Assembly: GCA_947624695.1 (NCBI GenBank)
Contig: CANQLN010000002.1
Coordinates: 1-34,053 of the forward strand
Length of the DNA stretch: 34,053 nt
Direction of reading: 5' to 3'
Origin: an uncultured Bacilli bacterium
Lineage (GTDB): Bacteria; Bacillota_I; Bacilli_A; RF39; UBA660
In this document: piece by piece, positions 7,241 through 21,388 of the stretch
How positions within the stretch are numbered: position 1 is the first letter of the stretch
How the letters are laid out: each line of letters opens with the position of its first letter
Made by a program: the position numbers and the translations under genes
The notes under the pieces: generated by a model
Databases searched by the model: none
What the model saw: only the letters and a program-made list of their open reading frames with translations
What the model was told of the DNA's origin: nothing

Positions 7241-7629
7241 AATTGCATGAATTAAGTGTTAAAGAGTTTTATGATTTAGTTATTTCTATACTAGAAACAA
7301 TTATAAAAGAAGTTGTAGGAGAAAACCCTGACGCTAATGGCGTGTTTCCGTGTTTAGTAGTACAAGCTCCTATGAGATATGACGAAAAAACAGGAGAAAT
7401 AGAGCCAATATTATCTAGGTTTTCAATTACTATTGAAGCTTGGACTAAAAAGAAATCCAATAGTATTGCTTTAATTGATAAAGTTGATAGTAAATTAAGA
7501 GGATATAATTTTACAAGATTAGGAACACCTATAGACCTTTATGACGAGATAACAAAAAGTCATCGTTACGGAGGAAGCTACGAGGTGTTTTATAATGCTA
7601 TAACAAATAGCTTAGAGAAAGTCAAATAA
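7237..7629 (+). CDS. tail terminator-like protein, tentative
   Basis: 130 aa; GTG start overlapping the upstream stop; lies immediately before the tail tube gene. Confidence 0.3.
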   Translation: MKLHELSVKEFYDLVISILETIIKEVVGENPDANGVFPCLVVQAPMRYDEKTGEIEPILSRFSITIEAWTKKKSNSIALIDKVDSKLRGYNFTRLGTPIDLYDEITKSHRYGGSYEVFYNAITNSLEKVK

Positions 7630-7650
7630 TCAAAAAAGGAGGGATTTATT

Positions 7651-8115
7651 ATGGCAACACCTAAAACAGGTACTCTAACTAAAATTTATATAAGTGATAA
7701 GGAATATCCTACCGAAGAAGAGTTAACTTTGGTTATGTACACGGAGGAAATTCCATCTCCCGAAGATCCAGCGGAAGCTGTAACATATCAAACTACTGAT
7801 ATGGACGGAGAGGAACAAAGTAAAGGTAGTAAGAAAGCTACTACTCCAGCAATTCCTGTTCTTTATAAATCCGATCAACATGACGATTTAAAGAAAAAAG
7901 CTGATAGTAATGATAGTTATTGGTTTTTTATCCGCTATCCTGAATCAACTTGTGATGAAACTAACGCCGGAAAGCCATTAGTTAAATCATTCTCAGCTCA
8001 AATGGATTTAACAGGTGATACTATCACAGCTGGAGATATTATTAAAGATACTTTAACACTTTATAGAAATTCTAGTGTTAAAGAAACTCACGGACTACCT
8101 ACTAATCCAGAATAG
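7651..8115 (+). CDS. major tail (tube) protein
   Basis: 154 aa; strong RBS aaggaggg; lies immediately upstream of the chaperone and tape measure genes; no sheath gene present. Confidence 0.5.
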   Translation: MATPKTGTLTKIYISDKEYPTEEELTLVMYTEEIPSPEDPAEAVTYQTTDMDGEEQSKGSKKATTPAIPVLYKSDQHDDLKKKADSNDSYWFFIRYPESTCDETNAGKPLVKSFSAQMDLTGDTITAGDIIKDTLTLYRNSSVKETHGLPTNPE

Positions 8116-14841: not shown

Positions 14842-15957
14842 ATGATTGGAAGTGTTAATGTAGGAAACAGGGCAACTGATAATCTTACTAAAGTTTATGG
14901 TGTAAGAAGATCACTTACTACTTCATCATCAGCTTGGGAACGAATCAGGGACGCTGTTGGACTTGAAGCAAACGCTCAAGTTAATACTAATCCTGTGAAA
15001 AATGATTTTGATAGCATTTATCCGTGGAGTGACATTATTTCTTATAACTATGATATAGTCGGTCAACAAATAACCGCCTATTATGGTGATCCTACCTTTA
15101 AATTTGATGGAAGTAATGGTGATGTTTTAACCAAGATTCCTGAATTTTATTGGAGGAGATATAGAGATAGTGATTATGAATATATCTTAATTTCTAAAAA
15201 TAAATTAGCTGGGTTTGTTAAAAGTGAAGAGTTTTCGGTTGGTAGATATACTATGTCCGGCTCAGCCTCTAGGGTTTATAGTAGAAGTGGACAAGCACCT
15301 CTTACTAATGTCAATATAACAAACTTTAGAAGCTATGCTAGAGCTTTAGGAAAAGGCTTCGGTCAAATGGATTGGCATTATTTCATATTACAAATGTTGT
15401 ATTTAGTAGAATATGCTGATTACAATAGTCAATTAAAACTTGGCTCAGGTTATACTAATAGCTCTCATACAGCTCCCGTTAATAGCGGTCAATGTGATGT
15501 TTTAGGAATGAAGTCGGGAAGTAGAGATGGTACTGACAATACATCAATGATTTATCGTGGTATCGAGGATATATTCGGTAATATATGGCAATTTGTTGAT
15601 GGTATCAACATAAGAGAGCGTAAAGCTTATATATGTTACAATCCTGACAAGTACGCTGTAGATAAATTCAATGATGGTTATACGCCACTAGGATATACCA
15701 ATGACGATGTTACAGGTTATGTATCTAAGTTAGGGTATGATTCTAATAATCCTTTAATAGCTTTGCCTACTGAGGCAACAGGTAGTAGTGATACTAATAT
15801 GTGTGATAATTATTGGCAAAGTGAGGGAGATAGAATTGCTCTTGTCGGCGGGCATTGGTATCACGCTTCTCAAGCTGGCTTGTGGTGTTGGAGTATGACT
15901 GAGCCTTCGTCTAGTGCGTGGGCTGGCCACGGTGCTCGACTTCTTAAAACCAGCTAA
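14842..15957 (+). CDS. DGR target: receptor-binding tail-fibre protein with a C-terminal C-type-lectin/FGE-like variable region
   Basis: 371 aa; last structural gene. The C-terminus LVGGHWYHASQAGLWCWSMTEPSSSAWAGHGARLL carries the VR; invariant G/W/C scaffold residues alternate with positions templated by AAY codons. Confidence 0.8.
   Translation: MIGSVNVGNRATDNLTKVYGVRRSLTTSSSAWERIRDAVGLEANAQVNTNPVKNDFDSIYPWSDIISYNYDIVGQQITAYYGDPTFKFDGSNGDVLTKIPEFYWRRYRDSDYEYILISKNKLAGFVKSEEFSVGRYTMSGSASRVYSRSGQAPLTNVNITNFRSYARALGKGFGQMDWHYFILQMLYLVEYADYNSQLKLGSGYTNSSHTAPVNSGQCDVLGMKSGSRDGTDNTSMIYRGIEDIFGNIWQFVDGINIRERKAYICYNPDKYAVDKFNDGYTPLGYTNDDVTGYVSKLGYDSNNPLIALPTEATGSSDTNMCDNYWQSEGDRIALVGGHWYHASQAGLWCWSMTEPSSSAWAGHGARLLKTS
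15839..15947 (+). repeat. DGR variable repeat (VR)
   Basis: 109 nt collinear with TR1. All 12 mismatches lie opposite TR1 adenines; no mismatch occurs at any non-A position. Confidence 0.85.
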
Positions 15958-15968
15958 AACGGGGGTTT

Positions 15969-16007
15969 GGGGGCGGTCAGCCTCCCATCAATCGACGAAT
16001 GTCGATT
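15969..16007 (+). promoter_or_regulatory. two hairpins just 3' of the VR (candidate DGR target-recognition elements)
   Basis: gggggc-ggtca-gcctcc (15969-15985) and aatcgac-GAAT-gtcgatt (15990-16007, 7-bp stem with tetraloop). The GC-rich stretch follows the VR but neither TR. Confidence 0.5.
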
Positions 16008-16078
16008 ATAAAATAAAAATACCTTTTAAAAGGGATTTGATGTGTTTAGCACCGAGTTAGTCGGGGTTTGTCTTGTGC

Positions 16079-16187
16079 CTCTTGTCGGCGGGAATTGGAA
16101 TCACGATTCTCAAGCTGGCTTGTGGTGTTGGAATATGAATGAAACTTCGTCTAATGCGTGGACTAGCAACGGTGCTCGACTACTTAA
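16079..16187 (+). repeat. DGR template repeat 1 (TR1), cognate to the VR
   Basis: Read in the VR register it gives LVGGNWNHDSQAGLWCWNMNETSSNAWTSNGARLL. 12 of its 26 adenines are substituted in the VR, 0 of 83 non-adenines. Confidence 0.85.
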
Positions 16188-16297
16188 TTTGAAACTAGGT
16201 ATGATAGTTTAATCTTTCCCGCCGACTTGTTTTGGGGAGAAGATTAAAACTAGGGACTTGGTGTGTGTGAGTTCGTGCGTTATTGGTTGTTTGTATG

Positions 16298-16404
16298 CTC
16301 TTGTCGGCGGAGATTGGAATAATACCACACAAGCTGGCTTGTGGTGTTGGAATTGTAATAATGTTTCTTCTAATGCTAACGCTAACATCGGTGCTCGACC
16401 ACTT
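16298..16404 (+). repeat. second, diverged template-like repeat (TR2), with no cognate VR in the window
   Basis: Same length and register as TR1 (219 nt downstream). Shares cttgtcggcgg, caagctggcttgtggtgttggaat and ggtgctcga exactly. Contains 8 AAY codons. Differs from TR1 and the VR at many non-A positions. Confidence 0.7.
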
Positions 16405-16549
16405 ATATTTAAAGTAAAAAACTTACACATCATCTTCCTCAGCCCTTGCTGAAAATTAGTCGTTCTGGGCTGGCTTAGTAGGTTTATCTCCTGAAAAATG
16501 GAATTTCTCGAACAGCTGGTAGGCAAATATAAGAATTGGTGACTCAGGA

Positions 16550-17620
16550 ATGAAAAGAAAAGGATTTATCTATGAAAAGATTGTAGATTTGAACAATATT
16601 GAATTAGCAATCTCAAAAGCTAGTATAGGAAAAGGTAAGAGAAAAAATGTTGAAAAGATATTAGATTCTCCTACTTATTACGCTATGCAAGTACAAAAGA
16701 TGTTAAAGGAAAAAAAGTATGTTCCTAGCCCTTATATCGAGATGAAAATTCACGATGGGGCAAATAAAAAAGAAAGAACAATATATAAACCTAGATTCTA
16801 TCCGGATCAGGTTATTCATTGGGCTTTAATGCTACAAATAGAGCCTCTATTAAAAAAAGGAATGTATGAGTTGTGCTGTGCTTCCGTTAAAAATAGAGGT
16901 ATTCATAGAGGTATGAAATATCTTAAAAGAATACTTGTAGATGATAGGAAATATACTAAATATTGTTTGAAATTAGATGTAAAGAAATTTTATCCTAGTA
17001 TTGATAAGGATATTTTAAAAGCTAAGTTTAGAAGAATAATAAAAGACCAAGATACACTTGATTTAATAGATATTATTATTGATAGTGGTAAAGAGGGATT
17101 GCCTATTGGTAATTATACTTCTCAATGGTTTGCAAACTTCTATTTACAAGACTTAGATCATTATATTAAAGAAGTATTAAAGGTAAAATATTATATCCGT
17201 TACATGGACGATATGGTATTGTTTTCTAATAATAAGAAAGAACTTAGAAAAATAAAATATGCTATTGATGAATTTGTAGCTAATGAAAAATTAGTTATAA
17301 AAGAAAATTGGCAATTATTCAAAGTTAATTCAAGACCAATAGACTTCTTAGGATATAGGTTTTATCGTGGATATACTACTTTAAGGAGAAGTAATTTTTT
17401 GAGGATAAAGAGAAGAGCAAAGAAAATATCTAAGAAAGACGAAATGACTTTCAAAGACGCCTCAGCTATGTTATCTTATAGCGGGTGGTTAAAACATTGT
17501 AATTCTCATAATTATCAGCAAAAATATATTAAGCCATATATTGATTACAAAAAATGTAAGGAGGTTGTAAGAAATGAAAGCAAGAAGTACAATAATTCCT
17601 CCAAAATTCAAAATAGGTGA
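16550..17620 (+). CDS. DGR-type reverse transcriptase
   Basis: 356 aa; YIRYMDDMVLFS (YxDD box); LPIGNYTSQWFANFYL (the [I/L]GxxxSQ motif characteristic of DGR RTs); no maturase or endonuclease extension. Confidence 0.85.
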   Translation: MKRKGFIYEKIVDLNNIELAISKASIGKGKRKNVEKILDSPTYYAMQVQKMLKEKKYVPSPYIEMKIHDGANKKERTIYKPRFYPDQVIHWALMLQIEPLLKKGMYELCCASVKNRGIHRGMKYLKRILVDDRKYTKYCLKLDVKKFYPSIDKDILKAKFRRIIKDQDTLDLIDIIIDSGKEGLPIGNYTSQWFANFYLQDLDHYIKEVLKVKYYIRYMDDMVLFSNNKKELRKIKYAIDEFVANEKLVIKENWQLFKVNSRPIDFLGYRFYRGYTTLRRSNFLRIKRRAKKISKKDEMTFKDASAMLSYSGWLKHCNSHNYQQKYIKPYIDYKKCKEVVRNESKKYNNSSKIQNR

Positions 17621-18071
17621 TAGAAAAGGCAACTTAATTGAGGTTGCTTTTTTTGATGATGTAAAAGAGATTCAAGATCAAGAAGAGGAAGCTACTTCTT
17701 ATGAATACTCAGTTTACAAAATCAAAACCATCTATAGAGAAAAATTAGAGGAATCCATTGAAAACAACTATGAAGCGTGGCTAGAGTTAGCTAAAGATAC
17801 TGATTATCAAGAATTAGCTAAAAAAGTAAGAGAAAAACGAGATGAGCTTTTGGCTGATAGTGATAAACAATTATTGCTGGATAGAATAGGCTTAGATCTA
17901 CCTGAGGACATAAACGCTACTAATCTTTTATTAGTAGTAAAAACTTTATTTGAAAATTTAACAAAAATTTTAAGAGGAGATTGGGCTAAATATAGGCAAG
18001 AGCTAAGAGATATTACTAAGCAAAAGGGATTCCCTTATGATGTGGAATTTCCTAAAAAGCCGGAAGAATAA
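17574..18071 (+). CDS. tail-fibre assembly chaperone-like protein
   Basis: 165 aa; RBS aaggagg; overlaps the RT 3' end by 47 nt. RDELLADSDKQLLLDR...WAKYRQELRDITKQKGFPYDVEFPKKPE resembles the phage tail assembly chaperone motif (..R..LL..sDw...D.....W..YRq.LRDi....gfP.dv.wP..P). Confidence 0.55.
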   Translation: MKARSTIIPPKFKIGDRKGNLIEVAFFDDVKEIQDQEEEATSYEYSVYKIKTIYREKLEESIENNYEAWLELAKDTDYQELAKKVREKRDELLADSDKQLLLDRIGLDLPEDINATNLLLVVKTLFENLTKILRGDWAKYRQELRDITKQKGFPYDVEFPKKPEE

Positions 18072-20257: not shown

Positions 20258-21388
20258 TTATAGATTATCTAATAAATCAACTATCTTATCTTGAACACTA
20301 GGGAATAAGTGCATATACACTTCTTGCATAACTCTTAGACTATGTCCCATTCTTTGTGACATCATTAAGAAAAATTTAGTTGAATCAGTTTCTCCTGATC
20401 TAATGTATTCGTTAATACATATACTTACATGAGAATGTCTAAACTCGTGTATAGTTATCATTTCTTTTTCCATATCAGCTAACTTAAAGTATTCTTTTCT
20501 ATGCTTTTGAACTTGATAATCACTTATGACATCACCATTTCCAAAAACATACCAATCTTCACTAAAGTCACTATATTGTTTTACATACTCTTTATATTTT
20601 AATAATTCTTCTCTTAATTTTCTTGACATAGTAATTTCTCTATTTAAGCAATTCTTAGTTGCTGTTATTTTAAATTTTCCTTTTTTAGTGTTAAAGGATA
20701 TAGTCTTATTTATACTAATCATATTGCTATTAAAGTTTATATCTCTCCAAGTTATAGCTAATATTTCTCCTTTTCTCATACCTGTAAAATATAAAGTAAG
20801 AAAGAAACAATGCCATAATTCATCATCTATAACACTTATAAATTTACAATATTGATCGTAAACAATATATCTTAATTTTTTATTTGTTTCAATAACTTCA
20901 TCATTTCTTTTTTTAAAACGCCCTGATAGTTCTACCGGATTATAATTTAATTCATACTTTCTATTAGCAAAAGTGAATATCTCTTTAAAGACAACATAGT
21001 ATTGATTACAAGTGGATATTTTTATTTTTTTATCTATAAGTTTGTTTTTCCAATTTTCTATATCCATAACACTTATTTCATCAATATATTTGCCTTTAAA
21101 ATATGGCTTAATATTATTTTCGTATTGAGATAAATAAGTAAGATATGTAGATTCTCTTAGTCTATGTTCGGCGTCTTTAAAATAATCATCGGCTACTATT
21201 TCAAACCTCTTTTTTATTGGAGCGTCACGATTCATTAAAAATACTCTTTCTTCGGCTCTAGCTTCTTTCTCTAATAAATATCTTTTAGAAGTATAGGGTA
21301 CTAATTTTCCCTCCGTGTTATGATAATATACTTTGAAGCGGTACTGACGCCCATCTTTAGTTTTTTCTTTATCCTTAAATACTGACAT
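20258..21388 (-). CDS. int: tyrosine integrase
   Basis: 376 aa; TGMRKGE, HEFRHSH and MGHS...Y.H catalytic-type motifs (R, HxxR, Y); RBS aaggaag. Confidence 0.9.
   Translation of the reverse strand: MSVFKDKEKTKDGRQYRFKVYYHNTEGKLVPYTSKRYLLEKEARAEERVFLMNRDAPIKKRFEIVADDYFKDAEHRLRESTYLTYLSQYENNIKPYFKGKYIDEISVMDIENWKNKLIDKKIKISTCNQYYVVFKEIFTFANRKYELNYNPVELSGRFKKRNDEVIETNKKLRYIVYDQYCKFISVIDDELWHCFFLTLYFTGMRKGEILAITWRDINFNSNMISINKTISFNTKKGKFKITATKNCLNREITMSRKLREELLKYKEYVKQYSDFSEDWYVFGNGDVISDYQVQKHRKEYFKLADMEKEMITIHEFRHSHVSICINEYIRSGETDSTKFFLMMSQRMGHSLRVMQEVYMHLFPSVQDKIVDLLDNL

Follow-up and report, generated by a model that had tools for sequence, protein, structure and literature searches.

A phage diversity-generating retroelement in which a tandem array of alternative template cassettes very probably serves one variable region

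The late region of a temperate siphovirus-like phage from an uncultured Bacilli bacterium (contig CANQLN010000002.1, assembly GCA_947624695.1; the 34,053 nucleotides (nt) analysed are called the window below) carries a diversity-generating retroelement (DGR) with two template repeats, TR1 and TR2. They lie in tandem between a tail protein gene, the 3' end of which is the variable region (VR), and the gene of the reverse transcriptase (RT). This locus is very probably a DGR in which one VR is served by an array of alternative template cassettes, two in the window and up to 10 in relatives. The original prediction, made from the window alone, described a possible two-template DGR. Two templates are indeed present, but they belong to an array architecture that is found across a whole clade of related phages and prophages, in which the VRs of different genomes derive from different cassettes by adenine-specific change. 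The use of TR2 itself as a template is likely by analogy, given its intact elements and the use of the same array slot in relatives. The central elements of the locus are the following.

14842–15957, forward strand: tail protein gene (371 amino acids) with the VR at its 3' end; open reading frame (ORF) matching phrog_5302 'tail protein' (2.8e-57)
15839–15947, forward strand: VR; 12 mismatches to TR1, all at adenines of TR1
16079–16187, forward strand: TR1, template of the present VR; core 16081–16180, 3' flank TACTTAATTTG
16298–16406, forward strand: TR2, RT-proximal second template cassette; core 16300–16399, in register, no stop codon
16550–17620, forward strand: DGR RT (356 amino acids); Pfam RVT_1 (2.2e-16), phrog_1423 (3.5e-109)

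The RT has an RVT_1 fold with the motifs IGNYTSQ at residue 186 and YMDD at residue 218; a [LIV]GxxxSQ sequence in motif 4 marks DGR RTs. The VR spans the last 40 codons of the tail protein. Its information transfer stops at GGTGCTCGAC (15931–15940), and the flank that follows, TTCTTAAAAC, is specific to the VR. The VRs of all relatives keep TTCTTA[AG]A at this place, whichever flank the donor cassette has, so the transfer must end at GGTGCTCGAC.

VR, TR1 and TR2 are three copies of a 109-nt unit that start at 15839, 16079 and 16298, and no further copy was found on either strand of the window. As had been predicted, TR2 has the length and codon register of TR1 and shares three exact blocks with it, CTTGTCGGCGG, CAAGCTGGCTTGTGGTGTTGGAAT (TR1 and TR2) and GGTGCTCGA, which are confined to these unit positions on both strands of the window. 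The number of asparagine (AAY) codons and the translations had also been read correctly: TR1 has 22 adenines in its variable part and 6 AAY codons, and TR2 has 24 adenines and 8 AAY codons, the most of the three copies. TR2 differs from TR1 at 26 of 109 positions, 9 at adenines of TR2 and 17 at other bases (about 25 of 105 had been claimed), and from the VR at 31 positions. Because 15 of the latter are not adenines in TR2, TR2 cannot, on its sequence, be the template of the present VR, a point that the prediction had made with the example of G16312 in TR2, A16093 in TR1 and C15853 in the VR, all three of which are correct. TR2 ends 143 nt upstream of the RT start at 16550, against about 145 nt predicted. 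TR1 is most similar to a cassette of the closest relative (L091_u1, 8 mismatches) and, by its 3' flank and sequence, is an orthologue of this A-rich cassette, called the L091_u1 or 'u2' type.

Relatives were gathered by a search of IMG/VR with an adenine-free scaffold block and by RT-protein searches of IMG/VR, GTDB genomes and metagenomes, which together gave about 240 loci (numbered with the prefix L). The nearest RT in these scans is 92% identical to that of the window, and a megablast of the locus against GenBank phages returned 0 matches. Copies of the unit between the target gene and the RT were counted with a profile of the 109-nt unit. In phages and prophages whose RT is at least about 76% identical, 2–10 tandem cassettes lie between a single VR and the RT. 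Counted with the VR included, complete loci mostly contain 5–9 units at RT identities of at least 85% and 1–11 units at 76–85%. At 60–76% identity, 56 of 75 loci contain 2 units, i.e. the canonical VR and one TR. These canonical single-TR relatives come mostly from metagenome-assembled genomes (MAGs) of Clostridia; the array clade occurs in human gut metagenomes and in MAGs whose labels read uncultured Bacilli, Tenericutes, Mollicutes or Mycoplasma. The closest relative, L091 (RT 92% identical), has four cassettes. Cassettes differ from each other by 30–50% in their variable codons. Orthologous cassettes are nearly identical across genomes while the VRs diverge, which sets the direction of transfer as cassette to VR.

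The cassette from which each VR was derived was sought in 47 distinct arrays, and a donor was accepted at no more than 2 non-adenine mismatches. Under this threshold, 35 of the 47 VRs are explained by a single cassette or by a chimera of two, and the second-best single cassette in these arrays has 10–27 non-adenine mismatches. The differences between VR and donor fall at template adenines in 231 cases and elsewhere in 16. Of the 35 VRs, 5 trace to the first cassette, 16 to a middle one, 7 to the last and 7 to a two-cassette chimera. The expectation that TR2 occupies the canonical template position and TR1 is the odd one out therefore did not hold, since every position of the array is used in relatives. 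The RT-proximal cassette, which corresponds to the slot of TR2, is the donor in L093, L096, L101, L103, L106, L191 and L196 and the source of the 5' half of the VR in L024, L091 and L092. The proposal that several templates rewrite the same VR and that TR2 is selected as a template is thus strongly borne out at the level of the family; for TR2 itself it rests on analogy.

The donor procedure favours patterns in which only adenines change, and two controls were run. With C, G or T set as the mutable base, none of 53 VRs finds a donor, compared with 27 of 53 with A. When the donor is chosen by overall identity instead, 37.8% of template adenines are changed, as opposed to 1.2–2.4% of the other bases, and the adenine changes comprise 140 A to G, 85 A to T and 54 A to C. 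Two pairs of nearly identical genomes are especially informative. L102 and L103 have seven cassettes in common without a difference and share 98.4% identity over 5.2 kb; even so, the donor of the VR is u6 in the first and u7 in the second. L020 and L021 have 3 differences in 9.7 kb and the same donor; their VRs carry 10 and 8 adenine substitutions. A pooled library of 372 cassettes contains a donor type at 0–1 non-adenine mismatches for nearly every VR or half VR. The donor type is at times missing from the array of the same genome, which implies that cassettes turn over.

The sequences of the cassettes are under selection for both frame and cis elements. The 182 distinct cores have lengths of 97, 100 or 103 nt, and every one is in register. 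In the VR frame none of the 182 contains a stop codon, whereas the other two frames are interrupted in 74 and 178 of them. Adenines are concentrated at codon positions 1 and 2 (1232 and 1272, with 245 at position 3). As the cassettes are never translated in place, the constraint stems from what they encode once copied into the VR. The median number of adenines in the variable part is 16 for cassettes, 24 for canonical single TRs and 12 for VRs, and the distribution of AAY codons is bimodal, with none in 41 of the 182 cassettes and mostly 3–7 in the rest. TR1 and TR2 are at the template-like end of this range. The suggestion that TR2 is a recent duplication relic can be rejected in view of the arrays of the relatives, the retained frame, the stop-free cores and the preserved cis elements.

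Each cassette is accompanied by its own RNA elements, and a single module downstream of the last cassette is shared by all of them. In the window these elements are as follows.

16032–16045, forward strand: TR1 leader GGGATTTGATGTGT, 5' strand of helix P1; motif conservation and covariation with the anti-leader
16253–16266, forward strand: TR2 leader GGGACTTGGTGTGT, alternative 5' strand of helix P1; 12 of 14 pairs with the anti-leader, G-U included
16402–16410, forward strand: TR2 3' flank CTTATATTT, 5' strand of helix P0; 9 Watson–Crick pairs with 16525–16533, covariation and permutation test
16425–16438, forward strand: anti-leader ACACATCATCTTCC, which provides the only 3' strand of helix P1; covariation in 66 sequences
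16440–16533, forward strand: shared spacer RNA module with hairpin P2 (16440–16451) and helix P3 (16469–16474 paired with 16515–16520); many compensatory pairs in the RNAalifold consensus

A leader motif, GGGAYTTGRTGTGT, is found about 27 nt upstream of the cassette in 330 of 332 cassettes from 60 arrays, with its columns at least 90% conserved compared to 30–60% elsewhere in the spacer. Canonical relatives have it too, ahead of their one TR and often a short way 3' of a TATAAT-like box. The duplicated leader of the original prediction is therefore real, but narrower than proposed: conservation is limited to the 14-nt motif, and the remainder of the roughly 50 nt is weakly similar. Likewise, the repeated unit of about 220 bp corresponds to a true period of 219 nt, but this period is specific to the window, and relatives have one of about 150–165 nt. 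The spacer after the last cassette opens with the complement of the leader, ACACATCATYTTCC. In the RNAalifold consensus of 66 sequences, 6 of the 12 pairs of P1 show compensatory changes on both sides (e.g. GACATGT with ACATGTC, GATATGT with ACATATC, and GGGTTTTAAAGTGC with GCACTTTAAAATCC). P1 is followed by the covarying hairpin P2, conserved unpaired adenines, a conserved single-stranded segment, AAAAUUAGUCGUUCUGG, and the covarying helix P3. In the minimum-energy fold of the window the anti-leader pairs with the leader of TR1, the current donor, which is a single anecdote and not evidence.

The second long-range helix, P0, covaries as well. Its 3' strand, AAATATAAG (16525–16533), is a conserved motif located 17 nt upstream of the start codon of the RT, and its 5' strand is the 3' flank of a cassette. 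A flank with TAT occurs with a motif containing ATA in 24 sequences and one with TTT occurs with AAA in 27, while the crossed combinations are found in 0. The mean helix length is 7.56 pairs for true partners and 6.24 ± 0.14 for permuted ones, and 0 of 1000 permutations reach the true value. All but one of 329 cassette flanks can form at least 4 Watson–Crick pairs with the motif, and the 9-bp flank of TR2 is the best in the window. An alternative pairing, in which the anti-leader binds the leader downstream of a cassette and so presents the 3' end of that cassette to the primer, was discarded: the flank would then lie at the wrong helix end, and P0 fits better.

The spacer invites comparison with the RNA of the Bordetella phage DGR. 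In its cryo-electron microscopy structure, a template:primer duplex lies beside a duplex of an upstream segment with the spacer, named 'cPRT Stop' (bioRxiv 10.1101/2023.10.23.563531). After the latter come a short stem-loop, two adenosines that are unpaired, the 'thumb ring', which is single-stranded, and a long stem that binds the RT (bioRxiv 10.1101/2023.10.23.563531). The order of elements in the array phages is alike, with a duplex (P1), a short hairpin (P2), unpaired adenines, a single strand and a long stem (P3). By this analogy, from which the functions of the four covarying helices are read, P0 is proposed to correspond to the template:primer duplex, and P1 and P0 together would select the template; the priming site is a proposal of the same kind.

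A cassette is a self-contained module made up of a 14-nt leader, a spacer of about 27 nt, an in-frame template of 97, 100 or 103 nt bounded by CTTGTCGGCGG and GGTGCTCGAC, and a short 3' flank with the core [CT]TTA. The single spacer module before the RT gene would serve all of them, its anti-leader pairing with the leader (P1) and its AAATATAAG motif with the 3' flank (P0). Since every cassette has the partner strands of both helices, the complex of RT and spacer could assemble on any of them. The extra cassettes would occupy the linker between the template flank and the anti-leader, which is A/T-rich and variable in length (about 25 nt in the window; it also varies in canonical relatives), and those downstream of the chosen cassette would loop out. 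Starting just 3' of GGTGCTCGAC, the RT is envisaged to copy the chosen cassette as far as the leader, making adenine-specific errors, and the mutagenised complementary DNA (cDNA) would replace the VR. In this manner the phage could jump between very different receptor-binding sequences by the choice of cassette and then explore the neighbourhood of each by adenine mutagenesis.

The chimeric VRs have a polarity. In all seven, the donor nearer to the RT supplies the 5' half (sign test, p about 0.008, one-sided). Such a product would arise if P1 formed with a downstream cassette, P0 formed with an upstream one, and the RT switched at the invariant central block GGCTTGTGGTRTTGG to reach the stop duplex. 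With the two helices placed the other way round, the RT would read through several cassettes and yield products with no protein-coding capacity. The observed polarity fits this split pairing; successive partial homing events would predict none. The VR of L093 (6854–6962) is derived from the last cassette (7751–7862) but is 33 nt (11 codons) short at the 5' end, and its junction, CTCTTGTCGG|CTTGTGG, makes use of a TGTCGGC microhomology, of which the last cassette contains a second copy. This looks like integration of the 5' end of the cDNA at an ectopic microhomology.

Some cassettes are themselves related by adenine changes. In L091, the cassette u3 (7575–7683) is an adenine-mutagenised copy of u1 (7265–7373) with 10 changes, all at A. 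Overall, 5 of 198 distinct cassettes are such copies of other cassettes (controls: C 0, G 0, T 2), and derivation within one array was seen in this 1 case. The RT has thus written some cassettes, or they were acquired from VRs. This gives weak support to the idea that the A-poor cassettes are an archive of earlier VRs. A fuller version of the mechanism, in which the array is an RNA-addressed library of receptor-binding modules, P1 and P0 choose the template, split pairing yields chimeras of fixed polarity and A-poor cassettes may store mutagenised VRs as a heritable memory, is offered tentatively and has somewhat less than an even chance of being right in all its parts.

Several observations weigh against the template array as described. 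Twelve of the 47 VRs are not explained by their own array, and most of these are explained by a cassette type of another genome. Three VRs are exact copies of a cassette with 0 adenines changed (L172 from u6, L183 from u3 and L222 from u4, with about 16–20 A each in the aligned unit), and the VR of L057 matches a cassette exactly over the 58 nt of it that are available, with 10 adenines unchanged. A mutagenic RT would not be expected to yield such copies. These copies suggest that an error-free route, e.g. homologous gene conversion, may also operate; they could reflect either such a route or a variable error rate per event combined with selection for unmutated 'good' cassettes. In the window, the flank of TR1, the current donor, forms only 4 contiguous P0 pairs. 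P0 and P1 cross and would make a pseudoknot, while the long-range helices of the Bordetella phage RNA are nested, so that the analogy is inexact. None of the 29 ORFs scanned, which include all neighbours of the locus, has a Pfam match to an Avd-like accessory protein. An Avd or HRDC accessory protein is present in most DGRs but not in all, so a locus without Avd can still be a DGR, and this one may belong to a lineage that lacks it. The evidence on TR2 itself is negative on the side of its products and kin: the search for a TR2-compatible VR among relatives, IMG/VR and the metagenome collection matched none, the best VR having 13 non-adenine mismatches over its full length and 8 over its 3' half; A-masked patterns of the TR2 3' half gave 0 matches in IMG/VR and the metagenome collection; and the closest of 372 cassettes differs from TR2 at 19 of 98 positions, so that TR2 has no close orthologue and its sequence is unique among relatives. 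Finally, all the evidence consists of assembled sequence, either metagenomic assemblies or MAGs.

Some of these observations would be expected if the cassettes were silent gene copies of the kind found at pilE/pilS and vlsE, in which case gene conversion would move archived gene 3' ends into the tail gene and the RT would mutate from one true TR. The exact-copy VRs fit such a scheme, as do the many A-poor cassettes, including those with no AAY codon, and recombination between repeats does occur, as the collapsed arrays of L015, L016 and L028 show. However, VRs derived from first, middle and last cassettes all bear the adenine-specific signature of an RT (231 against 16), and the homology is bounded exactly by CTCTTGTCGGCGG and GGTGCTCGAC, blocks of 11–13 nt that were judged short for RecA-type exchange. 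Moreover, leaders and flanks that covary with the spacer RNA are not needed for recombination of DNA. RT-independent, faithful conversion is quite unlikely to be the main process, although the minority of exact copies leaves room for it as a side route. A different concern applies to the window alone, where TR2 could be an inactive leftover of a larger array whose form is kept as the collapse is recent. The missing products and orthologues of TR2 would then be explained, array collapse is documented in relatives, the array of the window is unusually small and has an odd 62-nt insertion, and TR2 resembles last-cassette flanks at its 3' end and another cassette type in part of its body. Yet its leader (12 of 14 pairs), 9-bp P0 flank and register are all intact, it is free of stop codons and richest in AAY codons, many relatives use their RT-proximal cassette, and 26 differences from TR1 with intact scaffold codons are unlike drift. 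An inactive TR2 is therefore rather unlikely. The window is a small and probably collapsed example of the array architecture, and its two cassettes with the insertion between them may be a partly collapsed form.

Two further explanations carry less weight. Remote DGR targets are known (PMC5758913), and each extra cassette might serve a remote VR of its own, as in a conventional DGR with several TR/VR pairs; the original prediction had considered such a role for TR2. No support for it was found: there is no extra copy of the unit on either strand of the 34-kb window or of the 4–8 kb on each side of the approximately 240 related loci, the one adjacent VR uses different cassettes in different genomes, and all cassettes carry the 5' and 3' homing homologies of that VR. 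Remote targets are a very unlikely reason for the arrays. It is scarcely credible that the arrays are artefacts in which assemblers strung together population variants of TR and VR. Repeats are hard to assemble, and every sequence used here comes from a metagenomic assembly or a MAG, but the same cassette order and unique spacers recur in many independent assemblies (IMG/VR, ENA and MAG collections) from different studies and assemblers, a divergence of 30–50% in variable codons means that the cassettes are not near-identical repeats, and their cis elements covary.

A tandem array of alternative templates thus remains the preferred reading, and it can be set beside known systems. The DGR of Bordetella phage BPP-1 (mtd with its VR, avd, TR, spacer Sp and brt) is alike in its RT with I/LGxxxSQ and YMDD motifs, in having its VR in the 3' end of a tail gene for receptor binding, in adenine-specific differences between TR and VR with A at codon positions 1 and 2, and in a sharp 3' limit of information transfer at a G/C-rich block. 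Unlike BPP-1, which has one invariant TR, the array phages have 2–10 highly divergent templates per VR, each with its own upstream duplex strand and 3' flank, and some of their VRs are chimeric. Furthermore, the linker of about 25 nt in a locus with no Avd gene found contrasts with a 46-nt segment over Avd in the Bordetella RNA. Surveys with MetaCSST list DGRs that have at least two TRs near one RT (PMC6642488; PMC11661182). In those, the TRs are paired with VRs of their own, or overlaps are dropped as redundancy (PMC6642488; PMC11661182); a tandem array, alternative use on one VR and a per-template cis element are absent from these reports. The literature search found only such tallies of 'two or more TRs', and no account of alternative-template arrays for one VR, of cis elements per template or of chimeric VRs, with subscription-only papers lying outside the search.

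Neisseria pilE/pilS and Borrelia vlsE are similar to the arrays in that one expression site is rewritten from adjacent, untranslated, in-frame cassettes with conserved bounding blocks, the products are mosaic and the cassettes turn over. They differ in that the arrays bear the adenine-specific signature of a DGR RT, RNA elements and a mutagenised retrohoming copy, and show no sign of RecA-type or G-quadruplex (G4)-dependent gene conversion. Mu Gin, P1 Cin and the shufflons also provide a phage with alternative C-terminal receptor-binding sequences beside a tail-fibre gene, which widens host range. In contrast to these invertase switches, the locus has neither an invertase nor inverted repeats: all copies are direct, lie on one strand and are copied rather than inverted. 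No recombinase adjoins the DGR, and the sole integrase of the window (20258–21388) is part of the lysogeny module.

A DGR, as commonly understood, has one invariant template and diversifies its targets only at adenine-encoded positions, which limits the accessible sequence space to the neighbourhood of that template. A template array lifts this limit by allowing jumps between scaffolds that differ at 30–50% of variable positions, recombined halves, and hypermutation starting from each. It joins two strategies so far seen apart, the cassette switching of pilin and Vls antigenic variation and targeted hypermutation. The leader and flank of each cassette, together with a single covarying spacer module, offer a handle on how the RT chooses and delimits its template and on how DGRs function without Avd. 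In engineering, continuous evolution based on DGRs could be multiplexed with several templates per target. The hosts are uncultured gut bacteria, Bacilli-like or Mollicutes-like, in which array phages appear to be common.

Arrays are also lost. In L015 (5660–5900) the target gene is fused to the last cassette and its flank, and in L016 and L028 to the penultimate one, so deletion between direct repeats occurs, and large arrays must be maintained by selection. The fused gene of L015 ends in GARPLI* and no separate TR is left. In L068 (5275–5880) and L219 (RT 68% identical), two VR-like copies accompany one TR in a conventional multi-VR layout; the family has thus explored both kinds of expansion.

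The remaining features of the window are a further gene and two noncoding segments.

15968–16007, forward strand: two hairpins 3' of the VR in a DNA fold, one G/C-rich (15968–15987) and one of ATCGAC-GAAT-GTCGAT (15990–16007)
16193–16254, forward strand: insertion of about 62 nt, specific to the window, in the TR1–TR2 spacer, as seen against the spacer of L091; AACTAGG direct repeats on either side
17574–18071, forward strand: tail-fibre assembly or chaperone-like gene, not Avd; Pfam Phage_tail_APC and PHROG tail fibre assembly families

According to Pfam and PHROG scans, the window comprises the late region and the lysogeny module of the phage, with genes for terminase, connector, tape measure, tail proteins, holin, an M23/CW_7 endolysin, integrase and a CI-like repressor. 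The tail protein gene follows the tape-measure and distal-tail genes and precedes the RT and the tail-fibre assembly gene. The ORF of the latter starts 47 nt within the 3' end of the RT ORF, and this overlap embeds the DGR between the tail protein gene and the putative chaperone gene. A Pfam scan of the 371-residue tail protein gave no match. Its residues 123–261 have a weak sequence match (E 4.7e-4) to PDB entry 5vf4, titled 'Uncharacterized protein', which may be the DGR variable protein of Thermus aquaticus. This match is the one structural hint at the C-type-lectin-like, ligand-binding C-terminal region in which DGR target proteins carry their VR.

The hairpins behind the VR are conserved in relatives and are present in no cassette. 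A stem variant in L103 keeps the pairing (TCGAC/GTCGA versus CCGAC/GTCGG). They might serve in target recognition, terminate the tail gene or do both, and may mark the VR as the recipient. Consensus promoter scans of the locus gave nothing decisive; a promoter-like site, TCGACT-18-TATGAT (16176–16205), extends into the 62-nt insertion, which also contains a hairpin (TCTTTCCC...GGGGAGAAGA).

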